Positions 13,622-60,359 of a stretch of 64,000 nucleotides of DNA are shown in pieces; the first letter of the stretch is position 1, and the number at the start of each line of letters is the position of its first letter. The position numbers were made by a program, and so were the translations under genes. The stretch covers positions 667 to 64,666 of the forward strand of contig JBHIAL010000001.1 in assembly GCA_046758525.1 (NCBI GenBank), read 5' to 3'. The notes beneath the pieces are model-generated. The model ran no database searches and had not been told where the DNA came from. It saw only the letters and a list, made by a program, of their open reading frames with translations. This DNA is from a bacterium. GTDB taxonomy: Bacteria > Aerophobota > Aerophobia > Aerophobales > AE-B3A.

Positions 13622-14590
13622 ATGATTAAAAAGACGGTCTTGGTATGTGGAGCGGGGGGTTTTATAGGCAATCATCTTGTAAAGCGCCTGAAAAAAGACG
13701 GTTATTGGGTAAGGGGAGTGGATTTGAAATACCCAGAATATTCAAAAACTGAAGCGGATAATTTTGTTGTTGGTGATTTAACAGATATTACTTTTTGTCG
13801 AGGGATAATGGATAGACAATTTGATGAGGTATATAACCTCGCTGCTGATATGGGGGGAGCTGAGTATGTATTTACAGGCGATAACGATGCTAATATTATG
13901 TCCAATTCAGTAATGATTAATCTAAACATACTGAATACTTGTTATAAGAGAAACATAAAGCGCCTTTTTTATTCCTCTTCAGCGTGCTGCTATGCAGAAC
14001 ACAACCAGTTAGACCCACATAATCCAAAATGTTCTGAAGATTCTGCCTATCCTGCTAATCCTGACTCTGCCTATGGTTGGGAAAAACTGTTTAGTGAGCG
14101 TCTTTATAATGCCCATCATAGAAATTGTGGTATGGAAGTTAGGATTGGTCGCTATCATAATGTGTTTGGTCCCGAATGTACTTGGTTTGGAGGGAAGGAA
14201 AAAGCACCTGCTGCACTATGTAGGAAAGTGGCTGAAGTTGAATCTGGAGGAGGAATAGAGATATTTGGGGATGGGAAACAAACAAGGTCTTTTCTCTACA
14301 TTGATGAGTGCATTGAAGGTACTATCAGGCTTATGAAGTCGGATTATAATGAACCCATTAACATAGGCTCGGATGAAATGATAACAATAGACGAATTAGC
14401 CAAAAAGATAATGACTATTGCCAAGAAGGAATTAAAAATCAGGCATATAGATGGGCCTCAAGGGGTTAGGGGCAGAAACTCAGATAATACACTGATTAAA
14501 AAGGTCTTAGGCTGGGCTCCATCTGCTTCTTTGGATGAGGGGCTTAGAGTAACATATGACTGGATTTCAAAAAGGAGGGATATAACATGA
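13622..14590 (+). CDS. GDP-mannose 3,5-epimerase homologue (GME family)
   Basis: Block-by-block resemblance to plant GDP-mannose 3',5'-epimerase as I recall it, not an alignment I ran: GAGGFIGNHL; NLAADMGG; SSACCYAE; DSAYGWEKL; RIGRYHNVFGP; GGKEKAPAALCRK; GDGKQTRSF.YIDECIEG; NIGSDEMITI; GPQGVRGRNSDNTLIKKVLGWAP; EGLRVTYDWI. Confidence 0.75.
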   Translation: MIKKTVLVCGAGGFIGNHLVKRLKKDGYWVRGVDLKYPEYSKTEADNFVVGDLTDITFCRGIMDRQFDEVYNLAADMGGAEYVFTGDNDANIMSNSVMINLNILNTCYKRNIKRLFYSSSACCYAEHNQLDPHNPKCSEDSAYPANPDSAYGWEKLFSERLYNAHHRNCGMEVRIGRYHNVFGPECTWFGGKEKAPAALCRKVAEVESGGGIEIFGDGKQTRSFLYIDECIEGTIRLMKSDYNEPINIGSDEMITIDELAKKIMTIAKKELKIRHIDGPQGVRGRNSDNTLIKKVLGWAPSASLDEGLRVTYDWISKRRDIT

Positions 14591-16725
14591 CAGTCGAACA
14601 TACTATTATAATACCTCTGACCACTAACCTTTGTAACTTGAGAGAAACCATAAAGAGTGTAAATGAATACTCAGAAGACCACGAGATTCTGGTTATTGTA
14701 GATGATAGACAAAAGGTAGAATCAGAAATTGTAAAAACTATGGCATCTGTAGTTTGCAAAAAATCTACAATTGGGGAGGCTCTTAATGCTTGCATAGATT
14801 CAGCCAATGGAAAATACATTACAATCTTGAAGGATAATGCACTTGTTTCTCCTAATTGGCTAAATAAACTAAAAAGAACCTTTTTGCTCCCATCTTACAG
14901 ACCAGTTACAATAGCTGCGCCAATTCTGAGTCATACAGTATTTAGTGTCCAACAATGTGAATTCAGTCTGACATCTGGTAATTATATAAAAGCCTTGGAA
15001 GAGCGTAAGTTTAATTATGGATACACTCTTGCAAATCTGGTTTCGGATGTGTGTATTATGTTTGAGAGGACAAATGGGGTGCGCTTTAATGGGACGCTAA
15101 ATTCAGGTGAGATATTTGACGTGGTAGTAAGGAACACGCTCTCTGGAAATATATGTGCAATTAATAAGGGCGTTTTCATATTTGATAAGAGTCCAATAAC
15201 AAAACTTGATAATCTATCAAAGAGTATTATTGCTGTAGCCAAGATACATAACAGGTATCTCACAAGACCCCAAACAATACTGGGGGTAATAAGAACCAAA
15301 ATAACAAATGATTTTGACGCTGAAATATTCAAAATGGTATTGGATAAAACTAAGAGTCTTGTTGATAAAATACTTGTTCTCAATGAGGGACAGGAGTATC
15401 CTTTTGACCTGATAGGAGATATAAATAAACTGGATGTGTCTGAATCAATACATAACGAGAAAGCTTCCGAAGCAATAATCGACAGAATTGAAGAACTTAA
15501 TTGCGACTGGATTTTACACCTGAATGAAAAAGAAGTTTTAGAGGAGTCTATTACAAGGAAGGATTTGGACAGACTTATTTATAACCCTAACCCCCTTATT
15601 CATGGATATGTTTTTCAGGATTATCTATTTGAGGGGACGGACAATAACTACACAGCAAGTCAAGATTCCACCAAGACTGTAGTCCCCAATCTATTCAGAT
15701 ATATTCCAAATAGTAAGCATAGAAATTTTGCTATGCTCTTAAAGATGACTGAAGACTCTTTATGTGTATCAAGCATGAGATATAAACAGTATATAGAGCC
15801 AGCTAAAAATAAACCTGTCTTTACAACGAAGATGTGGAATGCAAATAATAGAATTGACATATGTACTATTATGAAAAATGAGGAGGCCAAATTATTCTGG
15901 TACATGCACAGACATTTTGGCTTTGCCAACAATGTTATACTTATTGACACAGGTTCTACGGACAGCTCCATAGAGTTGGCGAGATTGTTAGGAGCTATTG
16001 TTTATGAAGAAAGGGACGGCTCTAAAGATTTTGCACGAGCAAGGAATACCTATCTCAATAAATCATCTTCAGAATGGATTTTTCATGTTGATTTGGATGA
16101 ATATTGCAGTGATTTGACAGGCATAAGGAAATTGACTGAAGGTACTTGTGATAACTGGTTATTCAAGATTCAAAACAGGCGGAAGGATGGCTCCACTCCT
16201 ACAAGCGAAACCATCAGGCTGTTTCGTAATAAAGAAGGATTATCTTATAAGGGTATAATACATGAAATACTTGATACGCCGAAACCCCCTGCATATTCGC
16301 CCATAATTCTAATCAATGAAGGATTCTTGGAAGATGATGATGTCGTTGCAAGGAAGGTAAAAATGTATCTGGATATGTGCATGATGAGAATCAAACAAGA
16401 CCCAGAGGATGTTCAGGCATTATACTCAGTTGGGATTCATTTGGCAGATGATAATAGATATGAGCTTGCAATAGCAATGCTCAACAAGGCGGTAAGATTG
16501 ATGAGTGAATGGCACTTGCCAAAGAAGGAACTGGCAGTTACATATCTGCATTTTGGTAAACAATTATATAAAGAGCTTGTTGATATGTTGCCTGCCCACC
16601 ATCCTGACAGACTGGAATATGTAAAAGTATTTGAGTTTCTAAACAACGCATTCAAACCAAGAATAATAGATGTTGTCAGTATTACAAAAGATATATCTGA
16701 CGAGGATATAATGAAGATTTTATAA
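14587..16725 (+). CDS. multidomain glycosyltransferase: N-terminal GT-like domain, central GT2 domain, C-terminal TPR-like repeats
   Basis: 712 aa. ICTIMKNEE...LIDTGSTD...DLDEY is a GT2 signature. The C-terminus is helical and repeat-like (ALYSVGIHLADDNRYELAIAMLNKAV). ATGA overlap with the epimerase gene. Confidence 0.55.
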   Translation: MTVEHTIIIPLTTNLCNLRETIKSVNEYSEDHEILVIVDDRQKVESEIVKTMASVVCKKSTIGEALNACIDSANGKYITILKDNALVSPNWLNKLKRTFLLPSYRPVTIAAPILSHTVFSVQQCEFSLTSGNYIKALEERKFNYGYTLANLVSDVCIMFERTNGVRFNGTLNSGEIFDVVVRNTLSGNICAINKGVFIFDKSPITKLDNLSKSIIAVAKIHNRYLTRPQTILGVIRTKITNDFDAEIFKMVLDKTKSLVDKILVLNEGQEYPFDLIGDINKLDVSESIHNEKASEAIIDRIEELNCDWILHLNEKEVLEESITRKDLDRLIYNPNPLIHGYVFQDYLFEGTDNNYTASQDSTKTVVPNLFRYIPNSKHRNFAMLLKMTEDSLCVSSMRYKQYIEPAKNKPVFTTKMWNANNRIDICTIMKNEEAKLFWYMHRHFGFANNVILIDTGSTDSSIELARLLGAIVYEERDGSKDFARARNTYLNKSSSEWIFHVDLDEYCSDLTGIRKLTEGTCDNWLFKIQNRRKDGSTPTSETIRLFRNKEGLSYKGIIHEILDTPKPPAYSPIILINEGFLEDDDVVARKVKMYLDMCMMRIKQDPEDVQALYSVGIHLADDNRYELAIAMLNKAVRLMSEWHLPKKELAVTYLHFGKQLYKELVDMLPAHHPDRLEYVKVFEFLNNAFKPRIIDVVSITKDISDEDIMKIL

Positions 16726-44296: not shown

Positions 44297-46441
44297 ATGG
44301 AGAAAAGTGATAAGTGGAAAGACAAGTTTTTAAACAAAATTACTCAGGGCGATTGCCTTGAATTGCTGAAAGAACTGCCTGACGAGAGCATTGACTGTGT
44401 AATCACCTCTCCGCCGTACTGGGGGCTTCGGGACTACGGAGTTAATGAGCAGTTAGGCTTAGAACCTACATTTAAAGAGTATATTAACAACATCTGCAAT
44501 ATTTTTGACGAGGTCAAGCGGGTGTTGAAAAAGACTGGTACATGCTGGGTGAATATCGCTGATACCTACTGGGGTGGAGGTAATAATCGAGGTAATAATT
44601 CTCCTATTTCAGATAAGCAAAGCAGTAATCGTGGAGCGGTAGGGCAGGTGCAAATGGACTGGGATGGCGCCTTACCCAATAAGTGTCTTGTTGGCATCCC
44701 TGAGCGCTTTGTGATTGAAATGACGGATAGAGGGTGGATACGGCGTAATACGATAATCTGGCATAAGCCGAACTGTATGCCCACCAGCGCAGGTGACAGG
44801 TTTACGGTGGACTTTGAATACCTGTACTTCTTTGCTAAAAGCACAAAGTATTGTTTTGAGCGACAGTTTGAGCCGCTTTGCTTAGATATAAAAAAGCGGG
44901 CAAAGACAAATAATAATTCCGCAAAATCTGACACACAGGATTCTTATATATCTAACGAAAACACAAGGAAATATTTCAATAAGGTTTTAAGCGGTAAAAT
45001 ACAAGGGCGCAACATGCGAACCGTTTGGACTATACCAACGCAATCTTATAGCGAAGCACACTTTGCGTGTGTAACGCCTGATACAGAGATATTAACTATC
45101 GATGGATGGAAAAAATACACGGACATTAAATGGTATGGGAAAAGCAGCCCTCAGCATATTTTGGTTGCCACCTACAATATTAAGAAAAAAACTATTGAGT
45201 ATCAACCGTTAAGTTATATTAGAGAATACGACTTTAATGGAAAACTAATTAAAATCGGGAATAGAGATTTAGATGTTTTGATGACACCGAACCACCGAAA
45301 TATCGTAAAGAAAAAAATAGGAAAAGAAGAAATTGTATTAGCCGATAAACTTGCATATCTCGATAAAATTAGAGTTCATGCTCCCATAAAATATCCAGAA
45401 ACCTCTGGTATAGGAAGAACCTTTGCAGAGTTAATTGGTTGGATTATTTCGGAAGGTCATTATAAAAAAGGTGGCTATATTGAACTTTATCAAAATGAAG
45501 GTAATAGTGCAAAACGAATAGATTACCTTTTGCGAAAATTAGAAATATCACATACAAGAAAATTAAGAAATAAAATTTATAGGGGGCAAAACAAGGGGCA
45601 AGTTACTTGGTTTCTCAAGAAATCGCCTTTGATAGAATGGTGTTTAGCAAACATAAAATATAAACAACTTAATAAATTTTTAGTATCGTTACCTTTAACA
45701 GAAGTAAGGGCATTGTTTAATGGTTTAATTGCAGGGGATGGTCATAAAAGAAAAGATGATGGAAGGTTGTCTTTTGTGCAGAATAACAAACAGACAAAGG
45801 ATTGGTTTCAAATATTGGCATTCAGACTTGGGTATCATTCTATGCAAAAAGGCAATACGATTTATTTAACAAAAAGAACACATATCGGTATTAGAAAAAC
45901 TAATGGATGTGGTAAAAACATAAAGAAGATAAACTATGATGGTAAAGTTTGGTGTCCTAAAACTAAGAACGGAACATGGGTTGCCCGCAGAAATGGCAAG
46001 ATATTTATTACTGGCAATACATTTCCTGAGCGTCTAATCGAGATACCTATAAAGGCGGGATGCCCTGAGAAGATTTGTAGGAAATGCGGGAAGGCAAGGG
46101 AAATGATAATTGCGGTTGATTATGTTCCCGTTGGTGTTAAAAGTAACAACGAAAAATATGCAGAGAATACGCCATCAGACAATACCAATCCTGGGCCAGC
46201 AGGGATGAGGCATGGCAGAGCAAGGGCAATCCGTAACACCGCAGGTTATACCGATTGTGGATGCAACGCCGGCTACAACCCTGGGGTTGTTTTGGATTTA
46301 TTCATGGGTTCGGGTACAACAGCTTTAGTTGCCCTTAAGCTTAACCGTAACTTCATAGGTTTTGAACTATCTCAAAAGTATATTGATATGGCTGACAAAC
46401 GCATCCAACAGGAACTCAGGCAGGGGAATTTTTTGAGGTGA
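44297..46441 (+). CDS. DNA methyltransferase (beta-class N6-adenine/N4-cytosine amino-MTase, SPPY motif) interrupted by an intein
   Basis: N-terminal extein: GDCLELLKELPDESIDCVITSPPYW...KRVLKKTGTCWVNI. C-terminal extein: TFPERL...LDLFMGSGTTALVALKLNRNFIGFELS. The junction HFA|TFPERL is the conserved HxAxFPxxL motif split by the insert. Confidence 0.8.
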   Translation: MEKSDKWKDKFLNKITQGDCLELLKELPDESIDCVITSPPYWGLRDYGVNEQLGLEPTFKEYINNICNIFDEVKRVLKKTGTCWVNIADTYWGGGNNRGNNSPISDKQSSNRGAVGQVQMDWDGALPNKCLVGIPERFVIEMTDRGWIRRNTIIWHKPNCMPTSAGDRFTVDFEYLYFFAKSTKYCFERQFEPLCLDIKKRAKTNNNSAKSDTQDSYISNENTRKYFNKVLSGKIQGRNMRTVWTIPTQSYSEAHFACVTPDTEILTIDGWKKYTDIKWYGKSSPQHILVATYNIKKKTIEYQPLSYIREYDFNGKLIKIGNRDLDVLMTPNHRNIVKKKIGKEEIVLADKLAYLDKIRVHAPIKYPETSGIGRTFAELIGWIISEGHYKKGGYIELYQNEGNSAKRIDYLLRKLEISHTRKLRNKIYRGQNKGQVTWFLKKSPLIEWCLANIKYKQLNKFLVSLPLTEVRALFNGLIAGDGHKRKDDGRLSFVQNNKQTKDWFQILAFRLGYHSMQKGNTIYLTKRTHIGIRKTNGCGKNIKKINYDGKVWCPKTKNGTWVARRNGKIFITGNTFPERLIEIPIKAGCPEKICRKCGKAREMIIAVDYVPVGVKSNNEKYAENTPSDNTNPGPAGMRHGRARAIRNTAGYTDCGCNAGYNPGVVLDLFMGSGTTALVALKLNRNFIGFELSQKYIDMADKRIQQELRQGNFLR
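45068..46018 (+). mobile_element. intein (317 aa) with LAGLIDADG-type homing endonuclease domain
   Basis: Starts CVTPDTEILTIDG (Hint block A). Block B is LMTPNHR. Two LAGLIDADG-like motifs (ELIGWIISEGH and LFNGLIAGDGH). Ends ...FITGN followed by Thr+1 (TFPE). Confidence 0.7.
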
Positions 46442-49112: not shown

Positions 49113-49190
49113 TGGTCAGGGAGGGAGGATTTGAACCTCCGACCTCCTGCTTCCAAGGCAGGCACGCTAACCAGACTGCGCTACTCCCTG
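49113..49190 (-). tRNA. tRNA-Pro (anticodon TGG) with encoded CCA
   Basis: Reverse complement reads CAGGGAG-TA-GCGC-AGTCTGGTTA-GCGT-G-CCTGC-CTTGGAA-GCAGG-AGGTC-GGAGG-TTCAAAT-CCTCC-CTCCCTG-A-CCA. This is a full cloverleaf with a 7-bp acceptor stem, a T-loop TTCAAAT and a UGG anticodon. Confidence 0.8.
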
Positions 49191-57959: not shown

Positions 57960-58155
57960 TTACGCTCCTTGGCACTATGTGCGCCAACTCTAATCTCCGC
58001 CTTGTACCACACACAACACACTTTGTTTTGTAGAATCTCATAATGCTCTTATATTTTGTTGGTGTAATCTTTTCTTTTATTCTATCCTTACACTGACTAC
58101 ATTGTTTATAAGTAGGTTTTGTTATTTCGTTTTCTTCTATCATGTAAAGCTCCAA
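57883..58155 (-). CDS. HNH endonuclease
   Basis: CSQCKD...CVVCG...LELAHIVP...CKQHHREIFHG. Confidence 0.55.
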   Translation of the reverse strand: MELYMIEENEITKPTYKQCSQCKDRIKEKITPTKYKSIMRFYKTKCVVCGTRRRLELAHIVPRSVIVCNSIYNLLPMCKQHHREIFHGER

Positions 58156-60359
58156 TCCTTACCTATTTCTACATCTACATTTAGCACATTCTTCATTTCA
58201 GGTATGATTTGAGATGGAGATTCCTTTATGATATTTACTATGTCTTTTATAATATCTTTTTTAATTAAATCTTTTCTAACATAGAAGTCAATCTCATCGT
58301 GTACAGTATTACATATATATACCCCATTAAATCCTGCTCTATATACTTGAATACCTGCATTAATCGTAATATCTGATGCCAAACTCTGTATTATTGTGTT
58401 AACTGCCAACCTTTTTACTCTGTCTGAGTCTTCTTCTCTGTTTAAGTCTCTCCATCTATTGGTATAAGGAACATCAATCCTTTTTGTTCTTAGGGCTTTA
58501 TTTCTTACGGAAGCAATCCACCGAGCCACTTTTGGGAAAGCTGGGAAGAATGTTCTGATAACTTCCTCATCCATAAGTCCATACATTACTCCCAAAACTC
58601 TTGGTTTTAATGCCTGTCTTTCCTCTTTTGTGGGTAGCCCTCTATACATCCGCTTAAAAATAAATGTATAAACATCACTTGTATTTAGAAGTTCCTTATC
58701 CCCCGCTAATAATGCCAACACTTTAGGCTCAATCTGTTGGAAATCTATGCTTACAAAGTCATGCCCTTCTGGGGCTATGAATAACTTCCTGAACTCAGGG
58801 TCTCTGGGGATATTTTGAACATTGAATGGTTTTCCAGAACTCACCCGACCTGTTTCAGTAAAATGTAAATTATAATTAGTATGAATCCTGTCCATGCCTA
58901 AATAGGGTTCAATGTATGTGGATAAGAGTTTTTGAGTCTTTTTGAATCCAGTCAGTAATTTACATAGTGGGTGGTCAATGTTACTAATAATATCACTTCT
59001 TACAGAGTAATTGTTTTTTGGCGTTTTAGACAATTTAACCCCATCTTTTCTTAGAAATCCTGCTACTTGCTTGGGGGATGCTGGATTAAATTTTTCGTCT
59101 TTTACAAAAGCTATAATATTGTTGTGTGTATCATCATACAACCTCTTGTATTTGGGTAAGAGTGTGTTTTCCAAATGTCCAGAATCTATAAGTAAACCAC
59201 GGGATTCTACATCAGACAGCATAGGAATAGCATTGCACAATAAGCTATAAGCAGGTTCTCTTTTAGGAATTTTATTATGTAAATATGTAGTGAGCACGAC
59301 ATCAGACTTATTATATTCATATAGTTCCTCTTTAGGTATCTCGCCTATTTTAGCTGGGTCAACTTCTTTGATTTGGTTAATTGAAACACCATAAGCCTTC
59401 GCAATGTTTTTTAATTTATTACTAACTATTTTACCCCCAACCATTCCCGAATCTAAATAATGAGCCAACATTACATCGTGTAATCTTCCCTTGACGTTGA
59501 TGTTGGCTATCTTTTTAAGGGCGTTGCAATCAAATTTTGCATTAAACAACACTTTAGGAATATTTGGATTCTCCAGTAATTTTTTATAGCTTTCAACCTG
59601 AGAATTCTTTACCCAATCTACTACAATACATTTTTGGTCTTGTGTTCCAAACCCAATAGAAAGCAAATCTACCTCTTTTGTAAACAGTTCTACTCCTGTA
59701 GTTTCTACATCGAAAGTAATTGCTCCATTGTTTAGGCTATCAAAGAACCAAGTCCTTGCTTCTAAATTACCCCCATCAACCTTGTATTCATTTTCAATTT
59801 TGGGGGCATCACCATAAACAAGTTCCTTCATTCTTTGGAACGAGCCCTTATATCTTTGAGTTTCATAAGGTTTATAATTTAAATATGATGGATGTAATAA
59901 TGGTATTACTTTACCAAATTTAGATTCTTGTAGAGTTCCTTCAATATCTGTTATCTTTAATCTTTTATTATTTAAAATCGTAGAAGTAGCTGTATCACCA
60001 AGAGTTACAATAAATTCTGGTTTTAGCTCTTTAATTGTATGTTCTATAATGGGATAACATAGCCCTATTTCATCTTTGGTAGGGGGTCTTACACCACCTT
60101 CTTTGGTTGTGGTACGACAGCATACAGTATTACCAATTGAAACGTCATTCCAAGGGATGCCCACAAAATTAACTATATCTCTGAAAATCTTTCCTGCTTT
60201 TCCTACGAGAGGTTCGCCTGTTACCTCTTCTGAAGCACCTGGAACTTCTGCAACAAACAGTATCTTATTACCTATTGTTTTATTGGGTACATATGGACGA
60301 TTCAATAGGGGGCATTTATTGCAATTCTCTTTATTGTATTCTGGTTTTTGCCTAACCAT
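58140..60359 (-). CDS. family A DNA polymerase with N-terminal UDG family-4-like domain and 3'-5' exonuclease domain
   Basis: N-terminus VAEVPGASEEVTGEPLVGKAGKIF...NTVCCRTT matches the UDG-4 pattern GE.PG..Ed..G.PFvG.AG.lL...N...CRPP. PolA motifs include ICNTVHDEIDFYV (motif C) and RQALKPRVLGVMYGL. Confidence 0.75.
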   Translation of the reverse strand: MVRQKPEYNKENCNKCPLLNRPYVPNKTIGNKILFVAEVPGASEEVTGEPLVGKAGKIFRDIVNFVGIPWNDVSIGNTVCCRTTTKEGGVRPPTKDEIGLCYPIIEHTIKELKPEFIVTLGDTATSTILNNKRLKITDIEGTLQESKFGKVIPLLHPSYLNYKPYETQRYKGSFQRMKELVYGDAPKIENEYKVDGGNLEARTWFFDSLNNGAITFDVETTGVELFTKEVDLLSIGFGTQDQKCIVVDWVKNSQVESYKKLLENPNIPKVLFNAKFDCNALKKIANINVKGRLHDVMLAHYLDSGMVGGKIVSNKLKNIAKAYGVSINQIKEVDPAKIGEIPKEELYEYNKSDVVLTTYLHNKIPKREPAYSLLCNAIPMLSDVESRGLLIDSGHLENTLLPKYKRLYDDTHNNIIAFVKDEKFNPASPKQVAGFLRKDGVKLSKTPKNNYSVRSDIISNIDHPLCKLLTGFKKTQKLLSTYIEPYLGMDRIHTNYNLHFTETGRVSSGKPFNVQNIPRDPEFRKLFIAPEGHDFVSIDFQQIEPKVLALLAGDKELLNTSDVYTFIFKRMYRGLPTKEERQALKPRVLGVMYGLMDEEVIRTFFPAFPKVARWIASVRNKALRTKRIDVPYTNRWRDLNREEDSDRVKRLAVNTIIQSLASDITINAGIQVYRAGFNGVYICNTVHDEIDFYVRKDLIKKDIIKDIVNIIKESPSQIIPEMKNVLNVDVEIGKDWSFT

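Follow-up and report, generated by a model that had tools for sequence, protein, structure and literature searches.

The DNA analyzed here, a 64,000-nucleotide stretch of contig JBHIAL010000001.1 (positions 667 to 64,666; hereafter the window), comes from an uncultured tailed phage. One of its genes, encoding a DNA methyltransferase (MTase), is interrupted by an intein, probably of class 1, with a nested LAGLIDADG endonuclease; the intein belongs to a large, known phage intein family. We estimate a probability of about 0.9 that this is a mobile element that splices by the class 1 route and homes by means of the freed endonuclease. Below, we present the anatomy of the gene, the fold and family of the insert, the conservation of its splicing residues and the signs of its mobility, and we weigh the alternatives.

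A 317-residue insert splits a conserved block of the methyltransferase

The open reading frame (ORF) at 44297-46441 (+) encodes a 714-residue DNA MTase of family PF01555. By translation, nucleotides 45068-46018 of the same strand form 317 in-frame codons (residues 258-574, CVTPDTEILT...RNGKIFITGN), with ...SEAHFA on the N-terminal side and TFPERLIEIP on the C-terminal side, exactly as the initial annotation of this DNA had described. Pfam recognizes PF01555 (N6_N4_Mtase) at residues 32-254 (E = 1.8e-38) and again in the C-terminal part, with LAGLIDADG_3 in between. The computed masses are 81.9 kDa for the precursor, 36.8 kDa for the insert and 45.1 kDa for the 397-residue MTase that remains without it, close to the ~36 and ~46 kDa that had been predicted.

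The host protein also exists without the insert. In a 13-sequence alignment (A1), the gap in 11 intein-free homologues coincides exactly with these 317 residues, and H255, F256, A257 and P577 do not vary. In Methanobacterium virus Drs3, too, the MTase is uninterrupted across the block (...GAHFAVFPEELIETPIKAGCP). When the spliced MTase sequence was used as the query, more than 7,900 homologues were found at E ≤ 1e-30, the best of them 370-410 residues long, ~50% identical and aligned over 94-97% of the query. The insert therefore lies in frame at a conserved site of a protein with thousands of intein-free homologues. Because these homologues are gapped precisely there and Drs3 reads through, the coordinates are exact, and excision would restore a conserved block as had been claimed.

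Several lines of comparison identify this block. The order of motifs in the host protein, IV ... X-I (SPPY, H-F-A/T-F-P at residues 255-257 and 575-577, FMGSGTT), fits a beta-class N6/N4 amino DNA MTase. The split block lies just upstream of motif I, and in beta-class enzymes motif X is found shortly before motif I (PMC4490356). Our assignment of the block to motif X rests on alignments to Protein Data Bank (PDB) entries and on the EcoP15I paper (PMC4490356). H-F-A/T-F-P falls opposite HPTQKP and HITPKP in N6-adenine beta-class MTases and opposite HPAPFP in a solved N4-cytosine MTase (8s9m/8s9n). In EcoP15I, the flipped base is contacted by Asn416 and Lys418 of motif X (PMC4490356). Gapless extension of a HMMER alignment beginning at residue 421 places A257 opposite Asn416 and F576 opposite Lys418. 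By these alignments, the split block is motif X, H-x-A/T-x-F/K-P, and is predicted to line the catalytic pocket; such a pocket-lining block is the usual kind of intein site. The initial annotation had placed the insert in a "catalytic FP motif region." The motif X alignment upholds the pocket region, but the catalytic motif proper is motif IV, SPPY at residues 38-41.

The motif X block resembles the N4-cytosine HPAPFP rather than the N6-adenine HPTQKP; motifs in the sequence are not enough to establish base specificity. Judging from SPPY and H-x-A-x-F-P, the MTase is probably N4-cytosine-specific, and it may make N4-methylcytosine (m4C). A Cys-rich insert of ~68 residues (CPEKICRKCG...CGC) lies further downstream in the protein. 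Its cysteines are near-invariant in close homologues, and it is absent from the Drs3 MTase. This segment is probably a zinc-binding module and is possibly part of target recognition.

The insert has an intein fold and belongs to a widespread phage family

An AlphaFold2 model of the insert, computed from a 22-sequence alignment, has a predicted local distance difference test (pLDDT) score of 92.6 and a predicted template modeling (pTM) score of 0.90. Its termini are rich in β-strands, and two helices, residues 117-129 and 210-224, end at E129-G130 and D224-G225. When the PDB was searched with Foldseek, the top 16 matches were the TliVMA, PhoVMA, PI-PfuI and PI-SceI inteins (E from 2e-16 to 1e-9). 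The free LAGLIDADG enzymes I-Tsp061I, I-DmoI and I-SceI came after these, together with a mini-intein. At the level of sequence, phmmer gave one direct match in the PDB, the TliVMA intein 7qsu (E = 1.8e-4), and an NCBIfam model for an intein-containing archaeal V-ATPase A was matched as well.

A profile built from 34 related inteins, including the window's own copy, matches the insert region with E = 2e-101, far beyond chance. Run against the six-frame translation of the window, the same profile found only this insert and no second intein of the family. The reading of the insert in the initial annotation is upheld in all its elements, and fold, family and alignment together support a LAGLIDADG endonuclease nested in a Hint splicing domain and placed in a near-invariant MTase block.

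The family is large. Of the 6,871 proteins that a phmmer search over 1.84 billion representatives returned with E ≤ 1e-3, 2,073 also passed E ≤ 1e-10 and 204 passed E ≤ 1e-30; nearly all the matches are internal and full-length. The same element occurs in unrelated hosts: at two sites in PF01555 methylases and in metallophosphoesterase, PolA, AdoMet decarboxylase, portal, ribonucleotide reductase (RNR) small subunit, TerL and thymidylate synthase. Across these hosts its boundaries are always C...TGN, followed by S, T or C. This spread over unrelated proteins with fixed bounds identifies a mobile intein rather than a domain insertion. The Hint fold, the +1 nucleophile, the conserved insertion site and the bounded element in many hosts also rule out a BIL domain, a group I intron with an in-frame ORF and a non-splicing domain insertion.

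For residue and site counts, we used two sets, an alignment of 34 full-length members and 152 full-length copies from 144 newly returned proteins among the 150 best representatives. In the larger set, 103 of the copies are inserted at the H-(F/Y)-A / (T/S/C)-(F/Y)-P block. The H-F-A/T-F-P block of PF01555 methylases is thus a very common insertion point in metagenomic sequences.

Some methylases carry two inteins of this family. One (P0200) has them at HFA/TYP and inside motif I (LLDPFMG / C...SGN / SGT), and another (P0162) at KCGAWKG / C...TGN / SLGLEPT and at HFA/TFP. Homologous MTases on three IMG/VR contigs (L069, 1544-3559; L070, 2451-4307; L071, 3688-5280) contain a different in-frame insert of ~205-260 residues, between RFA(I/V)EMVxRD and RWxLR..IIWHKPN. 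It is overlapped in another frame by an ORF of 171-174 residues with CxxC...DH...N (HNH-like) motifs, and neither reading frame gave a match in Rfam or Pfam. This insert may be an intron; alternatively, it may resemble an intein whose endonuclease lies out of frame.

Splicing residues are conserved, with glycine in the penultimate position

Blocks A and B, the two LAGLIDADG-like helices and the terminal Asn followed by Thr+1, all named in the initial annotation, are present. Cys1 (A:1; 45068-45070) is invariant in the family (34/34 and 152/152). Block B reads LMTPNHR, in which Thr73 occupies position B:7 (Thr or Ser in 33/34) and His76 position B:10 (His in 34/34); position B:12, Asn78 here, is variable. 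Near the C-terminus, F:13 is mostly Val or Leu in the family and is Val305 here, G:5 is Thr in all 34 members (Thr315), and the terminal G:7 is Asn in 31 of them (Asn317). The +1 residue, Thr575 in the precursor, is Ser, Thr or Cys in 33/34 members and in all 152 copies, and homologues without an intein carry T or V there.

The canonical penultimate His (G:6) is not present, and Gly316 takes its place. The initial annotation saw in this Gly a reason to doubt splicing. Gly is found at G:6 in 33/34 members and 151/152 copies, however, and is a strongly conserved family trait, not a defect. A penultimate His is common in inteins but not obligatory, and several lack it (PMC7664689). The Bethlehem gp51 RDF intein, also of 317 residues and with Gly316, splices completely by experiment, and its G316H variant is slower and accumulates precursor (PMC5050341). 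Because Gly is the norm in the family and is compatible with splicing in Bethlehem gp51, we do not regard Gly316 as a liability.

The intein shows signs of horizontal spread and continued constraint

Pfam assigns the central part of the intein to LAGLIDADG_3 (PF14528; E = 3e-9). Both LAGLIDADG helices close with an acidic residue and a Gly (IISEG, E129-G130; IAGDG, D224-G225), as in homing endonucleases of the single-chain, two-motif type, and G130, D224 and G225 are invariant in the relatives aligned. Functional homing endonucleases are reported in several phage inteins (PMC5050341).

An allele at the same site on IMG/VR contig L010 allows the intein and its flanking exteins to be compared. 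The two inteins are 73% identical in protein and 73.6% in DNA, whereas the exteins are only 42-50% identical. A third MTase, on L054, is intein-free and 63% identical to the L010 extein, and its site reads HFA-VYPETL. The GC content of the intein is 32.5% in the window, against 43-45% in the exteins, and 28% in L010, against 36% in the host gene. Between the two inteins, the ratio of nonsynonymous to synonymous substitutions (dN/dS, Nei-Gojobori) is 0.10 overall, 0.125 in the N-terminal Hint part, 0.10 in the endonuclease and 0.05 in the C-terminal Hint part, values that are approximate because dS, at ~1.6, is near saturation. Taken together, these sequence comparisons indicate that the intein has spread horizontally among diverged methylase genes and that its splicing and endonuclease parts remain under constraint, in the form of purifying selection. 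The higher similarity of the intein than of its exteins, its low GC and a dN/dS of ~0.1 suggest that it is active and spreads horizontally by homing.

Contig L005 (5983-7275; JGI 3300031586, Ga0315541_1001802) carries the L010-type allele in a 5'-truncated form, and the same protein occurs on four contigs. Its ORF begins ~20 residues into the intein, without block A, and the MTase N-extein is missing upstream, where unrelated ORFs lie. The copy looks like a recombination remnant that has retained the endonuclease and the C-extein.

Proposed mechanism

The gene would be translated as the 81.9-kDa precursor, from which the intein would excise itself by the standard class 1 pathway. A thioester would form between Cys1 and Ala257, and the N-extein would then be transferred to Thr+1. 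Cyclization of Asn317 would free the intein, and an O-N shift would leave the HFA-TFP peptide bond. The predicted products are a 45-kDa MTase with motif X restored and a free endonuclease of 36.8 kDa. Because the extein is intact and all its motifs are conserved, a working MTase would require splicing. Alleles without the intein would present the endonuclease with its reconstructed site, ...GAAGCACACTTTGCG^ACATTTCCTGAG... (predicted target TCTTATAGCGAAGCACACTTTGCG^ACATTTCCTGAGCGTCTAATCGAG); it would cut there, and the intein would spread through repair during co-infection.

Alternative readings of the insert

A first alternative concerns Cys296, at position F:4. In a class 3-like or dual route, this residue, instead of or beside Cys1, would attack the N-terminal junction, and the resulting block-F branched intermediate would resolve onto Thr+1. 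The family offers some encouragement for such a route, as Cys F:4 is conserved in 31/34 members and 145/152 copies, in company with the invariant Thr G:5 and with Ser or Thr at +1 in most copies. The spacing between F:4 and G:5, 19 residues, is that of Cys320 and Thr339 in the class 3 prototype, the MP-Be DnaB intein (PMC2807308). Trp occupies B:12 in 10/34 relatives, which gives them the full WCT triplet alongside Cys1, and three WCT inteins with an initial Ser or Cys have been listed (PMC2807308). The best mini-intein match to our model, at Foldseek rank 47, is the class 3 AceL NrdHF intein.

The N-terminal residue argues otherwise, since Cys1 is invariant in 186/186 copies examined, which speaks for its use. 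Class 3 inteins (MP-Be DnaB, Msm/Mch DnaB1, AceL NrdHF) share Cys F:4, Thr G:5, Ser or Thr at +1 and an association with phages, but they have no N-terminal nucleophile and need Trp B:12, the mutation of which impairs class 3 splicing (PMC5222942). Here, the N-terminal nucleophile is present, and two of the three WCT positions are filled (Asn78, Cys296, Thr315). Cys is, moreover, the second most common F:4 residue among inteins generally (PMC4031507), Cys F:4 is also known from a polyphyletic set of class 1 inteins (PMC3196547), and Kelley et al. placed the homologous RDF intein in class 1 (PMC5050341). Because Cys1 is invariant, B:12 is Asn, and Cys F:4 is both common and polyphyletic in class 1, we consider a class 3-like route very unlikely.

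A broader idea is that phage inteins of the form C1 ... C(F:4) ... T-G-N connect class 1 to class 3 in both evolution and mechanism, in which case Cys296 would be a second nucleophile or a redox partner of Cys1 and Gly G:6 would take part in a His-free Asn cyclization. We think this unlikely. If it were true, Cys296 acting as internal nucleophile would give a block-F branched intermediate, Cys296 acting as redox partner would make MTase maturation conditional, and the H-F-A/T-F-P methylase intein would be a natural model for the origin of class 3 splicing in phages.

Several observations weigh against an active, homing class 1 intein. Neither G:6 nor F:13 (Val305) carries a His that could assist Asn cyclization, and the homologue tested by experiment is only 23% identical. 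The curated models score the insert weakly. The NCBIfam model intein_Nterm (TIGR01445) falls below its cutoff (E = 3.7e-4; 21.4 versus 24.5 bits), and Pfam gives the LAGLIDADG domain only, with no Hint or Intein_splicing match for the insert. Because of these scores, we relied on fold, family alignment and context instead. The near-saturated dS belongs to the same list. Finally, we found no closely related intein-free allele of this phage, and homing into its lineage is judged from other lineages.

A decayed, splicing-dead insertion, either an MTase pseudogene carrying an endonuclease or a non-splicing domain, could appeal to the missing penultimate His, to the lack of a curated intein model above threshold, to the truncated and clearly non-functional copy of the sister allele on L005 and to the loss of the terminal Asn in a few relatives (P0020, P0024, P0029), but it is scarcely credible in the face of an intact 714-codon frame, conservation of every extein motif, the presence of all family-conserved splicing residues, a dN/dS of ~0.1 in the Hint parts and a Gly G:6 that is normal for the family and splicing-competent in Bethlehem gp51 (PMC5050341).

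Comparison with known inteins

The intein described here resembles that of Bethlehem gp51 (RDF/metallophosphoesterase) in several respects. Both are 317 residues long, with a LAGLIDADG endonuclease, Cys1 and a T-G-N terminus that includes Gly316, and the Bethlehem intein also has Cys at F:4 (VWC). The two are homologous, with E = 4e-7 in tblastn and E = 7e-15 at 23% identity in pairwise BLASTP. They differ in that the Bethlehem intein occupies a metallophosphoesterase at a GNHD/C site in a different phage group. Its block A reads CSWTNARAVT, compared to CVTPDTEILT here, and its +1 residue is Ser instead of Thr.

The mycobacteriophage DNA methylase inteins DNMT-1/2 (Kelley 2016, PMC5050341; Gosselin et al. 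2025, bioRxiv 10.1101/2025.01.02.630785), represented by Bobi gp73, Willsammy gp52 and TootsiePop gp75, belong to the same family (27-28% full-length identity, E ~1e-23). They end in ...ARRNGxxFITGN/S, and their host is also a phage PF01555 N6_N4 methylase. However, the inteins of Bobi, Willsammy and TootsiePop are located at AWLYG/SGFPKS in another MTase subfamily, with a DPPY motif IV, and not at H-F-A/T-F-P.

The archaeal VMA inteins (TliVMA, 7qsu/7qss; PhoVMA, 7qst), PI-PfuI and PI-SceI likewise combine a Hint domain with a LAGLIDADG endonuclease nested inside it (TM ~0.6-0.7), but are only 10-19% identical, are larger and reside in archaeal or yeast hosts. In standard VMA-type inteins the penultimate residue is His, and F:4 is commonly Asp (PMC4031507).

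Both LAGLIDADG inteins in PF01555 methylases of phages and class 1 phage inteins whose penultimate residue is Gly have already been published (PMC5050341; bioRxiv 10.1101/2025.01.02.630785), and the present intein is not a new kind of system. In our search of the literature on phage DNA methyltransferase inteins and their insertion sites, we did not find the H-F-A/T-F-P site described.

Features of the gene and of the phage

Positions of the MTase and intein features in the window
Feature	Position	Strand	Basis or detail
N-extein, aa 1-257	44297..45067	+	PF01555, alignment A1; ends H255-F256-A257 (45059-45067)
Motif IV, ITSPPYWG (SPPY aa 38-41)	44402-44425	+	Within N-extein
Intein, 317 aa, 36.8 kDa, Cys1 to Asn317	45068..46018	+	Model, Foldseek, family profile, phmmer
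Splicing block A, CVTPDTEILTIDG, Cys1 nucleophile	45068..45106	+	Family conservation; intein_Nterm TIGR01445 below cutoff
Splicing block B, DLDVLMTPNHRNIV; Thr73 (B:7), His76 (B:10), Asn78 (B:12)	45266..45307	+	Family alignment
LAGLIDADG homing-endonuclease domain, ~aa 106-280 of intein	45383..45907	+	Pfam, model, Foldseek
LAGLIDADG motif 1, ELIGWIISEG, Glu129-Gly130	45416-45460	+	
LAGLIDADG motif 2, LIAGDG, Asp224-Gly225	45695-45745	+	
Blocks F and G, KVWCPKTKNGTWVARR...KIFITGN; Cys296 (F:4), Val305 (F:13), Thr315 (G:5), Gly316 (G:6), Asn317 (G:7)	45944..46018	+	
C-extein, aa 575-714 and stop	46019..46441	+	Thr+1 (T575) at 46019-46021, part of T-F-P
Cys-rich insert in C-extein	46061-46264	+	Between motif X and motif I
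Motif I, GVVLDLFMGSGTTA (FMGSGTT aa 669-675)	46283-46324	+	C-extein

The window has the gene content of a tailed phage: portal, HK97-type capsid, tape measure, tail protein, class II-like RNR, primase and PolA. It has no close cultured relative, as its major capsid protein is at most 35% identical to that of any deposited phage. Contigs from two sequencing runs carry the MTase gene in identical form.

Three further features of the window were recorded. A single tRNA-Pro gene (TGG; 49113-49190, -) separates the RNR gene from the ORFs that lie upstream of the primase gene. A 739-residue family A DNA polymerase (58140-60359, -) has an N-terminal uracil-DNA-glycosylase-superfamily domain and also a 3'-5' exonuclease domain. 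In the structural module, just upstream of the portal gene, a 712-residue protein (14587-16725, +) contains a family 2 glycosyltransferase domain.

Implications

The gene is best annotated as an intein-containing DNA methyltransferase with a mature enzyme of 397 residues, and not as a fusion or as two genes. In practical terms, it offers a compact 317-residue element with a predicted LAGLIDADG endonuclease, a predictable target and Thr at +1. For the family, the motif X block of PF01555 methylases emerges as a heavily used intein insertion point. In mycobacteriophages, phage inteins had been seen to manage without the penultimate His, and the near-universal Gly at G:6 strengthens this observation and widens its scope.

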